The notes beneath the pieces were generated by a model. That model saw only the letters and a list, made by a program, of their open reading frames with translations, did not search any database and was not told the origin of the DNA. This document shows positions 5,165-60,829 of a stretch of 64,000 bases of DNA, in pieces. The position numbers and the translations under genes are program-made. The DNA lies in contig NC_043002.1 of assembly GCF_006345805.1 (NCBI RefSeq), forward strand, positions 110,236,001 to 110,300,000, written 5' to 3'. Each line of letters opens with the position of its first letter. Position 1 is the stretch's first letter. This DNA comes from Octopus sinensis. Its lineage: Eukaryota.

Positions 5165-6050
5165 TATATGTTCTATTTTATTAACATATTATATGACTAA
5201 ACGCACGCACCCTATTAAGTAAGATTGTTCTGTTTATCAAGTTAGCCTTGATATTAACTCTCACGCGACTCTGCATCTTTCTTTCTTTCTCTCCCATTCC
5301 CTTTTTCGTCTTTTTTCCCTCACTTAACTTGTCTCTTCCTCTCTCTCTCATTCTTCATTCTCTCTCTCCCTTTCACCATTCTTCATGGTCTCCTCGCACC
5401 ATTCCCCTTCTTCTCTCTCTTCCTCTTGCTCCTCCTCCCCCATTCCCGTCGTCCATCTGCGACGATACTTCCGTCGTAACTGCTATCCTGTCTTTTCTCG
5501 CCCGCCTTCCAAGGCTACTGGTCGACATTTTTTCTCTCTCGTCGTCCACTATAATCCAGCGTTTGCAATACTTTTTTCGTCTGGCGTTACAGCCCTTCTT
5601 ATCTTGTTCTCCTTGTCCTGTCTCTCACTGTTATATATTTATTTTTCCACTGTTTATATATATATTTTTTTTACTATTTATATGTTTGTACTGTCGTTAC
5701 CGTCTTGCTTTTTTTACCCCTCTGCGAAAAGATCTCAGAATTTTAATTGATTTGCTTTTCGCAGGAAGGAAGTTTTCTTCGAAGTATATGTCTCGCTTTT
5801 ATCCTTCGAAACGTTTAGTAGATGAAACCTTAGCGACTGAAGAAGGGGATTTTTCGTTGTGCTTATTGTCCTGTATCTCCTTTTTTTGCTTGTCTTGTTC
5901 CTTGGTTTGTGTCTATGTTTTTCGTCTCTCTATGTGTTCGACGTCTTTTTGGTGTCCTGTACACATATATGCGTGTATATGTACATGTAGAGGTAGGTAC
6001 GTACATATATGTTTATATATATGCATATGTTCTATTTTATTAACATATAT
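5165..6050 (+). mobile_element. Small PLE/retrozyme-like repeat with short terminal direct repeat, containing a permuted hammerhead
   Basis: atatgttctattttattaacatat occurs at both ends (~5166 and ~6026). The 3' part is homologous to 22517-22830, 23432-23748 and 52000-52420. Confidence 0.55.
5788..5849 (+). ncRNA. Candidate non-circularly permuted hammerhead ribozyme
   Basis: atGTC-tcgct-ttta-tccttc-GAAA-cgt...agcga-CTGAAGA-agggga. Stem I is tcgct/agcga, stem III atgT/Acgt, stem II tcctt/gggga. Confidence 0.55.
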
Positions 6051-15907: not shown

Positions 15908-17115
15908 CAGGTCATCCCATAAGTTCTATCCAAATTTTGAGTAAAGAAAACAAGTGATCAAATGTTATATTTAATTGAAATTTAATCATCAATGTACTTT
16001 CCCTGATTCTCTATGACTTCCTTCCATCTATTTACAAGCTTTTTAATCGCATCAATGTAAAACTCTTTTGGTTTCAAAGCGAAGAACTCTGAAGTGTCAG
16101 TTTCAACCTCCTCCTGGCTTGCGAAAGTTATGTCCCCCAAATGATTCTGTAAACTACGAAACAAATGGTAGTTTGAAGGAGCAAGGTTGGAAGAATAAGG
16201 TGGATGAGGAATTTTTTCCCAACCAAGCTCTTCAATCTTTGTAGTGCGGCGTCGTGAATTGTCCTGATGAAACAACACTCCTTTTCAATTCACTAAAGCA
16301 CGTCTTTTTTTTTCCTTCAAAGCTTGGTTCAAACACTGTAATTGCTGACAGTAGACTTGAGCATTGATTGTTGCATTAGGTGGTAACAATTCAAAGTGAA
16401 TTACTCCTTTGCAATCCCACAAGATAGAGAGAAGAAATCTTTTTTCCATGAAGTTCCCTTCTCGGTTGTGATTGAGCTTTTTCCCTTTTACCAAGCCACT
16501 GTTTACAACGTTTAACATTTCGATAGAAGACCCATTTTTCGTCACCAGTCTATCCAAAAAGGGTGAAATGAGGTCATGAGAATGGAGAGAAGAACAGATG
16601 TCAACTCAGGGTTTGCAGTTGCTTTTGGACAATTCATGAGGCAGCTATTCTCCAAGTTTAGGGACCTTTCCAAGTTGTTGAAGATGATGATGAACATTTG
16701 ATGGTTGGAATTAAGCTTTATTGCCAATTCTTCAACTGATAATGCAGAATTTTCTTCAAGTAATGCCTCAAGGAGCTTATCATCAAACTCAACAGGACGT
16801 CCTGTTCGATCTTCATCTTCAAGGCTGAAATCTCCACTTTCGAATTTTGCAAACCATCTTCTGCAAGTTCTTTCATTCAAGCATTCTTTCACATAAACTG
16901 AGTGTATGTTTCAAGTCACTTCGGCTGCAGAGTTTCCTTTTTTGTACCCATAAAGCACTATGTGCCTTAAATGCTCTTTAGATACTTCCATGTTAGAAAA
17001 GGGTTTTAATCAAAGAAATTTTAATTCTATTATTCTGTAAAATAATATTTAATTAGTTTAAATGTACACAAATGCATGAAAATAACTTTTAATTCCATTA
17101 GACATTCTAAAATAC
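15908..17115 (-). mobile_element. Mariner (Tc1/mariner DD34D-type) transposon with frameshifted transposase 16991-15982
   Basis: N-terminal HTH segment RRWFAKFESGDFSLEDEDRTGRP, then ILWDCKGVIHFELL, FHQDNSR and LGWEKIPHPPYSSNLAPSNYHLFRSLQ...RWKEVIENQGKYI. Confidence 0.92.
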
Positions 17116-22030: not shown

Positions 22031-22258
22031 TACCGGAGTAGGAGTAAACACATAAATGTGAAACAAGGTGGAAAAAAGAGTACTCAAATACCAGTGGTAG
22101 AGTAATATGCTTTATTTAAAGCAGCAGAAAATTCTACAAAACCTGTTACTCTGAGTTTCGCGTTGCCGTTCATCGGACAGTTGTTGTTAGAATCTGTCCG
22201 ATGAACGGCAACGCGAAACTCAGAGTAACAGGTTTTGTAGAATTTTCTGCTGCTTTAA
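22031..22258. mobile_element. PLE-type pseudo-LTR fragment with inverted duplication; minimal hammerhead motif on each strand (22143-22180 minus, 22194-22231 plus)
   Basis: ctgt-CCGATGA-acg-gcaa-cgc-GAAA-ctc-a-gag-TA-acag. Arms 22117-22180 and 22194-22258. Other copies at 29453-29605 and 51209-51290. Confidence 0.65.
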
Positions 22259-22732
22259 TAAACTATATATATATATATAATAATATAATATATAAGTAGT
22301 AGAAATGGCTAAAGAAAATTTTTTGGGCTGCTATTTCTAAAAATTTCAGTATGTGGCAAAGTAAATTATTTTACTGAGCCCTTAATTATATAAAGAATAT
22401 TCTGAATACGCCTTGAATGGTCCTTTTACATACTGAAAAATACTTGGTGAAATTAATTAATAACTAATTGATTTCACCCTTAATTATTGATATATAATAT
22501 ATATATATATATATATGTGATAAATAAAAATATATGCATACATACAAACATATATGTACGTACCTACATCTACATGTATATATACATGCATATATAAATA
22601 TTATACGTGAGTACAGGACATCACAATAAGACGTAGAGAAACGAAAAAACAAACAAAAAACAAAAACAAGAAAACGAAAAACGAAAAACAAGAAAACGAA
22701 AAACATACAGGACGAGCTACACAAGGACAAAA

Positions 22733-22792
22733 CCCCCGTCATCAGCTGTCGCTAGTGGAGTCAGGCATGTTTCGAAGGCATAGACAGAACAC
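22733..22792 (-). ncRNA. Candidate non-circularly permuted hammerhead ribozyme
   Basis: Minus strand reads gtGTT-ctgtc-tatg-ccttc-GAAA-cat...gacag-CTGATGA-cgggg. Stem I ctgtc/gacag, stem III gtgT/Acat. Confidence 0.55.
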
Positions 22793-23648
22793 TAATCCAA
22801 TAGGCCTTCCTGCGAGAGAATTAAAATAAAATTCCAAGCAGCGGGGCAAAATGAGTACGAACACAAACAAACGAAACGTAACATAGACTACAAAATTAAA
22901 ATACATGTACAAAAAATGCAATTAATTACAAAACGAAAAACGAAAAATAAAAAGAGAAATACGATACAGGAAATCAAACACATGAAGACGAACGAAAAAG
23001 CCTTTTTTGGCATAGACAAACAATAAAACTGCAAAAATAAAAATACACGTACAAAAAATACAATTAGTTACAAAACGAGAAAATAAAAAGAATACGATAC
23101 AGGAAATCAACCACACAAGGGGACGAACGAAAAAGCCTTTATGCTGGCGAAGACGAATGGTAAAGTATCAGCGCGTGGAGGCAGTCTTTTCAATAGTGAG
23201 AACCACGTGTAAAGGAATTTTGTTTTATAAGCTGGCAGTAAAGAAGAAGGAAGGAGGAGGGGGACAGGCGGCGAAGAGAGAGGAGGAGTGGGAGGGAGAG
23301 AGAATGAAGAGGTTAAAGCAAAGGGAGAGAGTTCCGCATCTTAAATATAATAATATAAAAAAAGGAACAAAGAAGTGGACCGAAACGACGAATCGGAATG
23401 AACCTGATGCGGGGCGCTGTCAGACAATAAGGTGATAAATAAAAATATATGCATACATACAACATATATGTACGTACCTACATCTACATGTATATATACA
23501 TGCATATATAAATATTATACGTGAGTACAGGACATCACAATAAGACGTAGAAACGGAAAAAACCAAAAAACACAAAACAAGAAAACGAAAAAAAACGAAA
23601 AACAAGAAAACGAAAAACAATTACAGGACGAGCTACACAAGGACAAAA

Positions 23649-23708
23649 CCCCCGTCATCAGCTGTCGCTAGTGGAGTCAGGCATGTTTCGAAGGCATAGA
23701 CAGAACAC
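23649..23708 (-). ncRNA. Candidate non-circularly permuted hammerhead ribozyme (second repeat copy)
   Basis: Identical to 22733-22792. Confidence 0.55.
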
Positions 23709-23928
23709 TAATCCAATAGGCCTTCCTGCGAGAGAATTAAAATAAAATATATTCATATATATATTTCATTATTAGCCATGGGAGCAGTATTAGTTCAGAA
23801 CAGCATTCCATATCTCCTATATATTACTTATAGATATACTATAGAAACCCACAGCACTGCAGTATTTGTCTTGAGAAAGTATCTCGTGCAGACATATTGT
23901 GCAAAACAACACAGATGTATATCAATGG

Positions 23929-24012
23929 CAGGGATGGCCTTAAGCCAATTAGACCAATTGCTTCCAATCGGGCCCCACACTCAAGGAGGCCACATTCCCA
24001 AGGCTGGCCCTG
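23929..24012. mobile_element. 84-bp hAT-type MITE
   Basis: TIRs cagggatggcctt / aaggctggccctg with 8-bp TSD atcaatgg (23921-23928, 24013-24020). Confidence 0.75.
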
Positions 24013-48719: not shown

Positions 48720-50303
48720 TTCATCATCATCGTTTAACGTCCGTTCACCATGCTAGCATGGGTTGGACGGTTCGACTGGGGATCTGGGAAGCCAGAAGGC
48801 TGCACCAGGCTCCAGTCTTATCTGGCAATGTTTCTACAGCTGAATGCCCTTCCTAACGCCAACCACTCCATGAGTGTAGTGGGTGCTTTTTATGTGCCGC
48901 CCGCACAGGTGCCAGGCAAGGCTGGCAACGGCCACAGTCGGATTGGTGCAATTTATGTGCCACCGGCACAGAAGCCAGTCGAGGCGGCGCTGGCATCGGC
49001 CACGATTCGGATAGTGCTTTTTACGTACCACCAGTCCAGGGGTCCTGGCATCTGCCAGGTGCCAGTCATAGGATTGGTTCAATTTCGATTTCGATTTCGA
49101 TTTCACTTGCCCCAACATGTCTTCGCAAGCAAAGGGGGTTGGCATGGGTGCCTGTCGTCGGATGAGGTTCGATATCGACTTCACTTGCTTCAACAGGTCT
49201 TTGTGTCCAAGGGAGGAAAGGCATGCATAAATGGGCTGGGCTCACTTGTCCTGCCTGGTTTTCTCACGTACAGCATATTTCCAAAGGTCTCGGTCGCCGG
49301 TCATTTCCTCAGTGAGGCCTAAAGTTCGAAGGTTGTGCTTCACCACCTCGTCCCAGGTTTTCCTGGGTCTACCTCTTCCACGGGTTCCCTCAACTGCTAG
49401 GGATTGGCACTTTTTCACACACCTATCTTCATCCATTCTCGCCACATGACCATACCAGTGCAATCGTCTTTCTTGCACACCACAACTGATGCTTCTTAGG
49501 TACAACATTTCTCTCAAGGTACTAACGCTCTGTCGAGTATGTACACTGACATTACACATCCATCGGAGCATACCGGCTTCATTCCTCACGAGCTTACGCA
49601 TGTCCTCAGCAGTCATGGCCCATGTTTCACTGCCATCTAGTATGGCTGTTCGTACACATGCATCATACAGTCTGCCTTTTACTCTGAGCGAGAGGCCTTT
49701 AGTCACCAGCAGAGGTAAGAGCTCCCTAAACTTTGCCCAGGCTATTCTTATTCTAGCAGTTACACTTTCAATGCACCCACCCCCACTACTGACTTGGTCA
49801 CCTAGATAACGGAAGCTATCAACTACTTCTAGTTTTTCCCCCAGGAAAGTGACGGAAGTTGTTTTCTGCAGATTTTTGGAGGTTAATGCTCCCGAGCATC
49901 TGCCACATACAAAAACTATCTTCCCAGTTAGCCTACCTTTGACATTGCTGCACCTCTTATGTGTCCATAGCTTACACTGGGTACATCTTATAGAGTTTCT
50001 ACCTACACCTTTTCTACAGATCGAGCAGTGCCATCTTCCTGAAGACATTTGTGGATTGTCTACCTTCCTACTTATTAGTACTTTGGTTTTAGCTAGGTTG
50101 ACTCTAAGGCCCCTCGATTCTAAACCCTCCTTCCACACCTGGAACTTCTCCTCCAGTTCTGATAGTGACTCAGCAATTAGAGCAAGCTCCCAGGGGCAAC
50201 CTGTCTTGAATTCCTCCGTAATTGCTTGGAGGACTATGATAAATAGGAGGGGGCTGAGTACTGAACCCTGGTGGACCCCAACCTCTACTTTGAATTCTTC
50301 TGT
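48720..50303 (-). mobile_element. 5'-truncated RTE-clade LINE (RT C-terminal half, 3' UTR, (GAT)n tail)
   Basis: Open frame 50300-49242 contains GVHQGSVLSPLLF...FRYLG...GSETW...RLHWYGHVARM...GRGRPRKTW. Confidence 0.92.
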
Positions 50304-50366
50304 GTATTATTTAAGCTTATGTCATTTCCTCCATTGTGTTGTTTTTTATAATAGAATAAATATATA

Positions 50367-51993: not shown

Positions 51994-52206
51994 ATTTATT
52001 AATAAATAAAATATATGCATATATATATATATACATATATGTACGTACCTACCTCTACATGTATATATACACACATATATGAGTACAGGACACCAAAAAA
52101 ACGTCGAAAACAATGAGAAACGAAAACATGACACAAACCCAAGGAACTAGAGATTTTACTTAAACAACAAAAAAATAGAGTACAGGACAAATAACACAAG
52201 GAAAAA

Positions 52207-52268
52207 ACCCCTTCTTCAGTCGCCATGGTTTCATCTACTCTACGTTTCAAAGGTGAAGGCGAGACGTA
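52207..52268 (-). ncRNA. Candidate non-circularly permuted hammerhead ribozyme (best-paired copy)
   Basis: tacGTC-tcgcc-ttc-accttt-GAAA-cgta-(16 nt)-ggcga-CTGAAGA-aggggt. All three stems pair and the core is intact. It lies within a repeat at ~52000-52420. Confidence 0.62.
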
Positions 52269-57834: not shown

Positions 57835-60829
57835 GTCTTTGCACAGCTTCTAATGCTGGAGATATACTATGGTGTCAACTGTTCACTACCAGTGAACTAA
57901 GGTAACACCTCTTATTTTTCACTCACCTTCCGAAGTATTCAAGCAGTTCCAAGCAGTGCAGTTTTCTGCAAGTGCTCCACCTTTATTGCATCCCCTATTT
58001 TTTCCATATACTTCTCAAGATTTTTACTCACTGTTCCCAGGGCTCTGATAATTATTGGTACTACTACCACCTTTTTTATCAACCACAACTGCTAACCTCC
58101 CAAGCTAATCTGTCATATTTATCTACTTTTCTTTCTTCCTTATCGCATACCTTGTTGTCAGCTGGGCATGCTATATCTATGATCCAGCATAGTTTGCTTT
58201 CTTTCTCAAGACTATGTCTAGCTTCCTATTCTCTATCTCATGGTCGCACTGAATCAGAAAATCCCACAGGATCTTTGCATTATCATTTTCGATGATGCCT
58301 TCGGGTTTGTGGTCATACCAATTTTTTGCTCTGTCAAGTCCATACATGTTGCAAAGTGTCCAATAGACAAGCCTTGCTATATTGTCGTGGCATCTCTTAT
58401 ACTCCTTCTGGGCTAGTGGCATACATTGACTGGCAATATACCATATGGTTTTACCATTTTGTCCACAGATTCTGCACTTAACACTTTCTGATGTATTGTC
58501 TACTCTGTATTTTATGTAGTTTGTTCTTAGGCAGCTCTTGGGTAGCACAGATTAGAGCCTCCGTTTCCAGTTTTAAATCACTTTTAGTCATCCACAGCCA
58601 TCTTTTTTTCTCTGTCTGTCTTATCTTCAACATCCCTATGAAATTGCCCATGCATTCTTTTCTTTACCCACCTATTTTCAGTTTCATTTGTTTTCAATTG
58701 CTTGTACAGTGCTTTATCTTTGCAAACTTTCATCCTGCACAAGCCTGACCGTCTTACTTCTAATAATAGTGGTTTTTACATACCATGCTATGTTGTTTCC
58801 TTCTGCTCTAATGCTGTGTTTGCATCCACTAAGTCCTCTTCATCCAATTTTTCTTGGTACATACAGTCTGTCTGTGTCACATTTTGGGTGGAGTGTCCCA
58901 TATCTAGTTAGCAACTTCCTTGTCTTTCTGCCTAAGCTGTTTAGTTCATCTACTGTCCATGCGATTTCCCTGGCTCCATATCCAAGGAGTGAAACCGCCC
59001 AGGTGTTGATAGCTTTAATCTTATTCCATCCGTTTAATTTCGACTTAAGGAACAGTCTCAGTCTGCACATATACTCCACCTTAAATTTTCCTGTCATTTC
59101 TTTCTCCATCAATTTATCCATTTCCAAAATTCCCAAGTACTTATAGCCCATCTCTTCTATCTGCTTCATAACCTCCCCCAACAGTATCGATAGCCCATCC
59201 ATACATTTGATTTTGCCTCTCTTCAATACTAACACTCCACACTTTTTCAGTCTGAACTCCATTCTGATATCAGCACTGAAAGTATACACCATATCAATGA
59301 GGGAACTGACTTGGGCTTCATCTTTACCATAAAGTTTGAGGTCATCCATGAATAACAAGTGGTTGACTTTTTGTTGGTGGCTTTTGAATATATACCCAGC
59401 TTTATCTTTCCTCACAACTAGTGTTAGTGGTATCAAGCACAGTACAAAGATCAGTGGGGATAGGCAGTCCCCTTGGAAGATACCCCTCCTGATTTCTACT
59501 GTCCTTAAACTTCTTCCGTATGCTGTCAGGTCCGTCCTCCAATTCGTCAAACTTTTTCCAAGCAATTGCTCAACATTTGATGCAATGCCAAACAGATTCA
59601 TACATTCCTTAATCCAAGAATGTGGGATCATATTGTATGCCTTAAGATAGTTAATTCATGACAAGGCTAAGTTTGTCCATGAAAAGATGATGGATTGTAT
59701 CTTTTCTTTCCTTGAACTTGTACTTGGCATTCATGTTTCTCAAAGTCAAAAAGCAATGATGAGGAGCCATTTTTTGGAAGAGTCCAAATTTGATTTTTGA
59801 CAAACTCAACTTCCTTGATGTGATTTCAGTGGTGCATCCCCTCATACTTTAGTTCAATGAATTCATGATAAGAACAATTCCAACTATTTTCCTGCAGCCC
59901 ATAATCTACAAATGAGGATCCATATCATATGCTTTCTGGTAGTCTATCTACACCATCCCTAAGTCTGTTTTGTGCTTTTTGCAGTGTTTTATCGATCGGT
60001 GGTTAATCTTGGTTTCCCTGCATCTACATTTGTAGACTTTAACCAGAAGAAACAACTCTTCTGATATGAATATTCTGGTCCTTGAACTCACACATTGCAT
60101 CTATCAGTATTTCAGCAACCAGCTTCCACATGACAGGCAGTCAGAATATTGGTCTAAAATAGTCAACAGCATTTCCCTTGATACTACTTTCTGGTACATT
60201 ACTTTTCTGCCCCCCAGTCAACCAACTTAGGATTTCTGTGTGATTTTGATGTAATAAGCATAACTGTTCTGCAATCATTTATTAACATTCAGTAAATTTC
60301 TTCACCCAGTATCCCTGAACTCAATTTGGGCTTGCTGTTTCCCTCTTGTTCATCTTCCAACTTATACATCCAACATCCTCCTTGTTTATCTCAATATCTT
60401 CTTGTAGAGGATTTATACTTATTTCATGTTACATAGCCACTGTGCGTTAGTGTTGTGTTTCTTCTTCCCTCATATCCCATTCCCAAATCTTTGTCTATCC
60501 TCTGCATTTGTGGTGTCTGTTTCTCTGTTTATTTCTTGATAAAATCTTTCTTGGTCAACTTTGAAGAGTCTGTTTTATCTGTTTTATTCTCTTTGAATCT
60601 CTCATCATATCGAGCAAGTTTTGCTCTCTTGGCTTGCACCCACTGTTTTAGTTCCTCAATTACTACCAGTAACCTTCTGAAATCAATACTGAACTTTTGT
60701 TTCAGCATGTCATACTTGTGATAATTCTGCAGTTCTCCTTTCCTTCTTTCAGTTACTGACATTAATTCCTTTTTATGCCTCCAAATATCTTTCTCTTCCA
60801 CCATGGTTCTTTGTTCACCCTTCTATTCT

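Follow-up and report, generated by a model that had tools for sequence, protein, structure and literature searches.

A 64,000-nt stretch of the Octopus sinensis genome (NC_043002.1, positions 110,236,001 to 110,300,000 of the forward strand; hereafter the window, numbered from its first letter) contains two near-identical direct repeats, each of which had been predicted to carry a permuted hammerhead ribozyme. What kind of element is this, would its RNA cut itself, and what copies it? We found that the locus is a partial-tandem copy of an abundant non-coding retroelement, and that the anatomy of this element matches the hallmarks of Penelope-like elements (PLEs). We consider it probable that the 3′ module of the element carries a hammerhead of the type-SGC topology, predicted to self-cleave at 22788/22787 and 23704/23703, and that a Penelope-like reverse transcriptase (RT) likely makes the copies of the element.

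A direct-repeat search of the window (families D9, D5 and D4), together with BLAST, placed the repeats at 22517–22832 and 23432–23748. Each is approximately 316 nt long, their starts are 914–916 nt apart and they are 95.96% identical over 322 columns, in agreement with the pair of near-identical repeats of about 315 bp in the original prediction. All of the differences between them, indels and substitutions alike, fall within a T-rich, (GTTTT)n-like tract, and the ribozyme part is the same in both (alignment A1, columns 18–145; no difference in 128 columns). As had also been predicted, the 599 nt between the repeats hold no credible open reading frame (ORF): stop-to-stop frames of 95–139 amino acids overlap the element, none with a Pfam match. 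AT-rich microsatellite adjoins the structure at both ends, as a (TA)n run at 22489–22516 (no strand assigned) beside the 3′ end of the element and as an AT-rich flank at 23749–23766 beside its 5′ end.

On the minus strand, both repeats read GUGU-U^CUGUC-UAUG-CCUUC-GAA-ACAU-(16 nt)-GACAG-CUGAUGA-C-GGGGG, where ^ marks the predicted cut. All three strands of the hammerhead junction are intact, in the order cleavage-site strand (S), GAA strand (G) and CUGAUGA strand (C). This order is not a circular permutation of the type I–III hammerheads, and the three stems all cross one another. Judged by its sequence, the motif is a type-SGC, non-circularly permuted hammerhead, with the topology described by Eckert et al. 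in 2023, and the predicted permuted hammerhead was recovered as S, G and C blocks in both repeats.

In the full copy of the element, the ribozyme domain spans 22706–22813 (minus strand), from GCAGGA (22813) to UCCUGU (22706), as assigned from the sequence, the S-G-C order and the covariation of stems I, III and an additional helix, P4. It comprises, in order, GCAGGA, GGAAGG, the 5′ strands of P4 and stem III, the cut site, the 5′ strand of stem I, the UAUG linker, the stem II strand CCUUC, GAA, the 3′ strands of stem III, P4 and stem I, CUGAUGA, an extra C, GGGGG and UCCUGU. Within it, all on the minus strand, the S block (22783–22792) consists of the stem III strand GUGU (22792–22789), U17 (22788) and the stem I strand CUGUC (22787–22783); the G block (22767–22778) of the stem II strand CCUUC (22778–22774), G12, A13 and A14 (22773–22771) and the stem III strand ACAU (22770–22767); and the C block (22733–22750) of the stem I strand GACAG (22750–22746), CUGAUGA (22745–22739), the extra C (22738) and the stem II strand GGGGG (22737–22733). 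Hammerhead rules (U16.1, an H17 that is not G, then stem I) predict cleavage between U17 (22788) and C1.1 (22787) on the minus strand. An identical domain lies in the upstream repeat at 23622–23729 (minus strand), where the descriptor match has H17 at 23704. The partner site predicted there, 23704/23703, is 916 nt from the first, and the rules give the same two positions as the original prediction.

Standard searches did not recover this motif. Rfam reported no ribozyme at the gathering score in the whole window and none at E ≤ 10 in 22300–23950, where it gave AT-rich, microRNA (miRNA)-like matches and one CRISPR-repeat match; the miRNA-like matches are noise on an AT-rich hairpin in the 3′ tail of the element. 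No CUGANGA...GAAA in the canonical order was found on either strand. Layouts of type I, II and III hammerheads were tried by hand and by regular expression, and none fitted.

We then asked how common the motif is beyond chance. A tight pattern built on the element (GGAAGG..CCTTCGAAA..CTGANGANGG) matched 3,824 places in the 2.72-Gb genome, against 0 for the same pattern reversed, and a variant pattern matched 39 places against 0. With a 133-nt probe from the repeat, candidate matches numbered at least 1,245, and the top 40 were 97–100% identical to it. The first 40 pattern places, taken whatever their subfamily, yielded 43 matches, of which 32 have a stem I of at least 5 bp and a stem III of at least 4 bp; the rest carry single-copy mutations or small indels. 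Within the window, the full scrambled-order descriptor matched four times, against none in 200 block-shuffled windows, and CTGATGA alone is not enriched (7 occurrences, 10.1 expected). Two of these four copies lie away from the locus: one at 5788–5848 (plus strand; descriptor position 5792), of a B3-like subfamily, and one at 52205–52268 (minus strand; descriptor position 52263), B2-like, with C changed to U at stem II position 11.1. We also scanned metagenomes with a pattern of the G and C blocks, which reported 119 stretches; 80 loci taken with their flanks gave 70 pattern matches. Both stems fit in 1 of these 70 chance matches versus 32 of 42 in this genome. The single both-stem fit looks like chance, and no relatives were found among the 70. 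In public sequencing data (24 runs, all as contigs, and with their status as RNA runs a guess), the family was found in contigs of four organisms, and the variants there spare the core and the stems.

The core is conserved across subfamilies whose stems differ. CUGANGA varies only at N7, GAA is kept and H17 is never G, with the proviso that CUGANGA, GAAA and part of stem II were fixed by the tight search pattern. A15.1–U16.1 is present in 39 of the 41 rows of a MAFFT alignment of the family (A2), with one other pair and one gap. H17 is C in 21 sequences, U in 12 and A in 7, and N7 is A in 21, U in 17 and G in 2. Each of the S, G and C blocks is uninterrupted except for one nucleotide after A9: in all copies stem II is separated from A9 by an extra C or A. 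According to Eckert et al. (PMC10085705), one or two inserted nucleotides do occur beside CUGAnGA. In type-SGC hammerheads the linker between stems I and II is typically 3 nt. Of 40 sequences here, 24 have a linker of 4 nt, 8 one of 3 nt and 6 one of 5 nt, and single sequences have 2 and 6 nt; an abundant 1-nt deletion, the loss of C1.5 (22783), leaves a U.G pair and a 3-nt linker.

Covariation supports stems I and III. In A2 (41 sequences), 89.7% of the cells are paired and 7 of 15 pairs show changes on both sides (99 cells). The covariation score was 0.383 versus 0.218 for shuffles, none of 500 of which reached it, and partners slid out of register gave at most 0.155. The two-sided changes affect four of the five pairs of stem I and three of the five pairs of stem III, with 97.4% and 92.6% of cells paired, respectively. 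Among 40 distinct sequences, stem I pair 1.1–2.1 is U-A in 19 and C-G in 16, and pair 1.2–2.2 is C-G in 19 and U-A in 19; stem III pair 15.3–16.3 is A-U in 18, G-C in 14 and G.U in 6, and pair 15.4–16.4 is C-G in 17, U-A in 16 and U.G in 7. A relative that is 68% identical and lies beside a PLE (locus L052) keeps the core and has both stems swapped: stem I changes from CUGUC/GACAG to UCGCU/AGCGA, and stem III from ACAU/GUGU to ACGUA/UACGU.

A further helix, P4, is formed by two segments, one lying between GGAAGG and stem III and the other between stem III and the strand of stem I. In the full copy, its 5′ strand CCUAUUGGA (22796–22804, minus strand) pairs with UCCACUAGC (22759–22751), which runs straight into the stem I strand; elsewhere in the family ACUAGUUUGAC pairs with GUCGAACUAGU, or GGC/GCC replaces GAC/GUC. 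Across 36 sequences the native P4 duplexes had a mean energy of −8.0 kcal/mol versus −3.7 in 620 cross-family pairings and −4.8 with shuffled partners, and compensatory examples are present. P4 extends stem III beyond an internal loop. Its length is close to that of stems III and I together, which would fit a fold-back. A helix joining the free sides of stems I and II was looked for and not found; what precedes the stem I strand is instead paired upstream of stem III, as P4. Two other possible helices, a closing helix GCAGGA:UCCUGU and GGAAGG:CCUU, show one-sided changes or are broken in one subfamily, and we treat them as leads only; the GGAAGG:CCUU pairing is not kept in subfamily B3. A kink-turn in the internal loop between stem III and P4 was rejected: tandem G.A/A.G pairs stand beside P4 in some subfamilies, but by eye there is no canonical three-nucleotide bulge.

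To what kind of element does this ribozyme belong? Copies of the element share one fixed end, at about 22517 beside (TA)n, whereas the other end, towards 23431, differs from copy to copy. With the minus strand taken as sense, this variable end is a 5′ truncation and the ribozyme lies in sense. In all subfamilies the fixed end lies approximately 200 nt beyond the ribozyme core, next to a (TA)n run (39 of 43 sites). We set the unit at 915 nt (23431→22517, minus strand) because in tandem copies the end of the module, ...ATCACC, continues into TTATTGTCTGACAG, the start of the unit. The full unit at 22517–23431 thus has an internal part of 599 nt (23431→22833) followed by a 3′ module of 316 nt (22832→22517), which is its end, and there is one ribozyme per unit. 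The conserved 3′ tail (22517–22700, minus strand) contains the T-rich tract, a GUCCUGUAC motif, the AT-rich hairpin and an end ...UUUAUCAC at the (TA)n target, and likely holds the start site of reverse transcription.

The upstream repeat (23432–23748, minus strand) corresponds to the last 317 nt of the unit, with the second ribozyme, and its sense-upstream neighbour is the AT-rich flank and not unit sequence. It is a 5′-truncated partial copy of the unit, that is, a pseudo-LTR, and not an intrinsic long terminal repeat (LTR). Other loci have upstream partial copies of differing length and longer arrays, and solo 5′-truncated copies dominate. Among the first 100 pattern places listed there are six direct pairs 789–879 nt apart and one inverted pair; inverted 5′–5′ copies occur at L141 and L144. 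Of the earlier description as an LTR-like element, the two-repeat structure stands and the intrinsic LTRs do not; the length of the upstream repeat varies by locus. Family anatomy and covariation together support the core of that description, a non-autonomous retroelement of the retrozyme or Penelope pseudo-LTR kind with a permuted hammerhead in each terminal repeat.

The same evidence bears on whether the two repeats could be an assembly artefact, as the original prediction had cautioned, or the ends of a true LTR element like the plant retrozymes. Simple repeats are abundant in this stretch, and the locus is known from the assembly and not from raw reads. However, several indels distinguish the two repeats, many loci have a unit end joined to a unit start, contigs from three further runs cross from unit into repeat, and other genomic copies with the two-repeat architecture, whose absence had been named as grounds for rejection, are present. 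An LTR origin fits poorly with repeats of locus-dependent length and a family dominated by solo 5′-truncated copies, and we saw no primer-binding site, polypurine-tract logic or target-site duplication. We regard an assembly duplication as unlikely, and artefact and LTR origin taken together as very improbable.

The anatomy of the element resembles that of PLEs. The hallmarks set out in the relevant parts of Craig et al. (PMC8557442) are partial tandems, 5′ truncation and inverted 5′-truncated neighbours; in the Neptune and Naiad clades the target is (TA)n. The octopus genome contains at least 5,029 GIY-YIG candidates, many in open frames of 781–883 amino acids. The PLE ORFs that we read are Neptune-like, with an RT, then a CX4CX2C linker and then a C-terminal GIY-YIG domain, and copies of these PLEs also end at (TA)n. 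The link to PLEs is likely, on the insertion hallmarks and the abundance of intact PLEs elsewhere in the genome. The original prediction had placed PLE RT and endonuclease remnants in the window itself, at 9.0 and 17.1–18.2 kb; the four ORFs there have no Pfam match, and a Neptune-like PLE protein of this genome had no tblastn match in the window at E ≤ 1e-3 (best E 0.86), and these remnants were not confirmed. At L052 (minus strand, at approximately 2690–2700 in reverse-complement numbering), a Neptune-like PLE copy that is short of about 12 nt at its 3′ end is fused there, without (TA)n, to a 5′-truncated B-type ribozyme element. This single case may be a nested insertion, or RT may have switched from one RNA template to another during a single round of copying.

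If the ribozyme cuts, templates with a ribozyme-made 5′ end would leave retrocopies that begin at the cut site. In the sister subfamily B2, 12 copies have a (TA)n flank 0–11 nt upstream of stem I, and 11 of these begin at position 1.1 and one at −4. Truncation points flanked by (TA)n are also frequent just downstream of the cut, with 67 and 45 reverse-strand matches in the next two 11-nt windows (overlapping registers inflate the forward counts), and rare 29–39 nt upstream of it, with 4 places, 2 of which look like intact copies. In a similarity-ranked sample, 6 of 29 B2 copies start at 0 to +7. The step in B2 at the predicted site is what cleaved templates would leave; transcription starting there is the alternative. 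Two individual loci can be noted here. Approximately 205 kb beyond the window (G000:C6:110504802-110505755), two B2-type copies lie 916 nt apart, each after (TA)n and each starting exactly at the predicted cut site, and at L298 (G000:C9763:27004-27313) one member of an inverted 5′–5′ pair starts exactly there.

Several observations weigh against a cutting ribozyme copied by a PLE enzyme. Stem II is weak and invariant: CCUUC with GGGG gives the pairs C-G, U.G, U.G and C-G in 40 of 40 distinct descriptor matches (448 kb of loci), and it has no support from covariation because it never varies. In nested minimum-free-energy (MFE) folds, CCUUC pairs better with the conserved upstream GGAAGG, and GGGG pairs with the downstream CCUU. 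Shuffled sequences fold as well in this way as the ribozyme region does (z of −0.64 to +0.64, one at −1.43), as expected because the motif is pseudoknotted. An on/off switch in which CCUUC moves between GGAAGG and GGGG is possible, and has no covariation behind it. The direct run of P4 into stem I requires the RNA to turn sharply at the internal loop, which may or may not be compatible with the active fold. The family to which the window's element belongs has 5′ ends scattered along the unit: 1 of 28 independent copies starts within 2 nt of the cut, and 2 of 5 (TA)n-flanked copies that end within 11 nt of the cut start at it, a weak signal. The cut site is bridged by contigs in putative RNA runs and in a large run whose kind is not given. 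Two putative RNA runs, each from a different study, contain two contigs apiece that end exactly at 22787; we give these ends no weight because contigs also bridge the site and unitig ends can come from sequence variants. With regard to the PLE partner, no similarity to the unit was found in two full Neptune-like copies or 30 PLE loci, separate insertions aside, nor in PLE 5′ or 3′ regions, and no recognizable coding region lies upstream at 178 ribozyme sites, one PLE juxtaposition excepted.

One explanation that takes up the structural points is that the motif, although structured and conserved, only looks like a hammerhead and does not cut; it could, for instance, be a signal by which RT recognizes its RNA or finds its start. 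Covariation proves structure and not catalysis, stem II is weak and invariant with competing pairings, every subfamily keeps the motif in the 3′ module beside the start of reverse transcription, and the window's own family is almost without a cut-site footprint. Yet all of the positions needed for hammerhead chemistry are kept across subfamilies with differing stems (A15.1–U16.1 in 39–40 of 40–41), the B2 retrocopies start exactly at the predicted site, and the same topology (the HRIMA-1 motif and its SGC variants) cleaves in vitro, as recounted in the relevant parts of Eckert, Friedrich, Weinberg and Weinberg (2023; PMC10085705). We therefore consider a non-cutting look-alike improbable, and prefer a self-cleaving type-SGC hammerhead.

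The points on the partner could instead indicate a SINE-like passenger of a LINE or another non-PLE RT, with tandems arising by unequal crossing-over or replication slippage. LINE-driven copies are typically 5′ truncated too, RVT_1 remnants lie in the window at 49.2–50.3 and 58.8–59.7 kb, and no PLE was found to share sequence with the unit. Against such a passenger, the element has no poly(A) or simple-repeat tail, it inserts strictly beside (TA)n, a target that it shares with the Neptune-like PLEs of the genome, and its partial tandems with variable upstream truncation, combined with inverted 5′–5′ copies, form a signature of PLEs in the account of PMC8557442. We rate a non-PLE passenger as improbable, slightly more so than the non-cutting look-alike. 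Searches for a matching PLE gave the following. Rfam found no canonical hammerhead in 20 PLE loci at the gathering score or in 3 at E ≤ 5, nor did regular expressions, and the sampled intact Neptune-like PLEs have no hammerhead of canonical or S-G-C order in the 1.5 kb after the endonuclease. No PLE with an N-terminal endonuclease (Naiad type) was among the loci inspected. An upstream ORF of at least 180 amino acids occurs at 5 of the 178 ribozyme sites: one is the L052 juxtaposition, L017 and L018 overlap, and three others have no Pfam match. We therefore infer a PLE partner rather than identify one.

A retroelement with a self-cleaving type-SGC hammerhead, copied by a PLE RT, would work as follows. 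Both ribozymes would cleave a transcript that spans the two repeats, giving a 916-nt RNA with 5′-OH and 2′,3′-cyclic phosphate ends, which a host ligase might circularize, as in retrozymes; the junction of such a circle would have the same sequence as the tandem DNA. The PLE RT would start at the ...AUCACC boundary, approximately 270 nt downstream of the cut, priming on a nicked (TA)n target. Running past one unit on a circular or multimeric template would produce a unit followed by a partial unit, the structure seen here, and from cleaved linear RNA would come short copies beginning at the cut, like those of subfamily B2. Reverse transcription of PLEs starts inside the RNA and not at its 3′ end, as reported in the relevant part of Frangieh et al. 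(2024; PMC11167929).

The window has further features. Approximately 260 nt to the left of the element, beside an AT microsatellite, is a perfect 65-nt inverted repeat (22116–22180 and 22194–22258; 100% complementary, 13-nt spacer), which may be a foldback or MITE-like element. A remnant of a mariner/Mos1-type transposase at 15982–16910 (minus strand) is split over adjacent frames (Transposase_1, E 9.7e-20; HTH_48, E 1.1e-7; Pfam span 16.3–16.9 kb). The RVT_1 remnants lie at 49242–50306 and 58840–59655 (both minus strand), the first followed by a match to a PHD/C1-like zinc finger, and both are unlike the Neptune-like PLE protein of the genome.

How does the element compare with known systems? 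Plant LTR retrozymes reportedly have true LTRs with type III hammerheads, use LTR-retrotransposon machinery and give RNAs of 600–1000 nt (said to have been described by Cervera et al. in 2016). The octopus element resembles them in being non-autonomous, in having a hammerhead in each terminal repeat and in the size of the predicted excised RNA, but its repeats are pseudo-LTRs of variable length. Animal non-LTR retrozymes, reportedly described by Cervera and de la Pena in 2020, are said to be non-coding head-to-tail copies with one classical type I hammerhead per unit, for which a unit-length (circular) RNA was proposed. The octopus element is likewise non-coding and non-autonomous, with head-to-tail copies and one hammerhead per unit, whereas its hammerhead is not of type I, its units are 790–916 nt, compared with 170–400 nt in animal retrozymes, and most of its insertions are solo and 5′ truncated rather than long arrays. 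Animal retrozymes have been proposed to be PLE derivatives, according to part of a preprint by Li, Clavereau and Pollet (2026; 10.64898/2026.07.22.740005).

With the PLEs that carry hammerheads, as described in parts of PMC8557442 and PMC11167929, the element shares pseudo-LTRs from partial tandems, 5′ truncation, inverted 5′-truncated neighbours and the (TA)n target. In both, the repeated 3′ portion contains a ribozyme, and reverse transcription starts internally some hundreds of nucleotides downstream of it. It differs in lacking an RT/GIY-YIG ORF and in having a non-canonical hammerhead. Craig et al. (2021; PMC8557442, in the passage on Naiad) mention cases with half cores on either side at 35–50 nt, which could be the same scrambled-order motif.

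The type-SGC hammerheads, as far as they are set out in the portions of PMC10085705 that treat them, have the same order of cleavage site, GAAA and CUGAnGA, a fully conserved core, mutually crossing stems I–III, a short linker between stems I and II (3–5 nt here) and a strand after stem III that enters the stem I strand directly. There are differences too. The published examples are metatranscriptome or metagenome contigs associated with hairpin ribozymes, and ours is in an animal retroelement; in the published fourth helix the segment ahead of the stem I strand pairs with the one that follows the stem II strand, whereas here it pairs upstream of stem III, as P4; and all copies here have the extra nucleotide after A9, with cleavage predicted from sequence. 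The main text of that paper mentions no animal, and retrotransposons only in a reference, and the tested accessions in its supplement are all from IMG/M save one bacterial record. We found no type-SGC hammerhead in print for an animal genome or retroelement, only the 2023 paper describing the topology, and no such case in the literature on octopus or cephalopod hammerheads, retrozymes or Penelope elements. The topology, the retrozymes and the PLE pseudo-LTR hammerheads are thus already known; what appears to be new is the type-SGC form in an animal retroelement.

This finding gives a host and a plausible job, the processing of retroelement RNA, to a topology known from environmental RNA of unknown hosts, and the thousands of copies are a natural mutational series for structure–function work. 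P4 bears on a geometric puzzle raised by the discoverers of the topology: the direct connection from the end of stem III to stem I is hard to reconcile with the crystal structure, according to the part of Eckert et al. (PMC10085705) that discusses it. Standard hammerhead searches, whether by Rfam or by canonical descriptors, are blind to the S-G-C order, and this bears on the reported absence of hammerheads in some Penelope-like clades. We propose tentatively, with somewhat less than even confidence, that type-SGC hammerheads are a working genome-encoded animal ribozyme, the processing module of a large Penelope-dependent retrozyme superfamily, with a P4 of their own and perhaps a CCUUC on/off switch. 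If so, retroelement lineages reported to be without canonical hammerheads may carry permuted ones, and some of the SGC ribozymes of environmental RNA may come from such elements.

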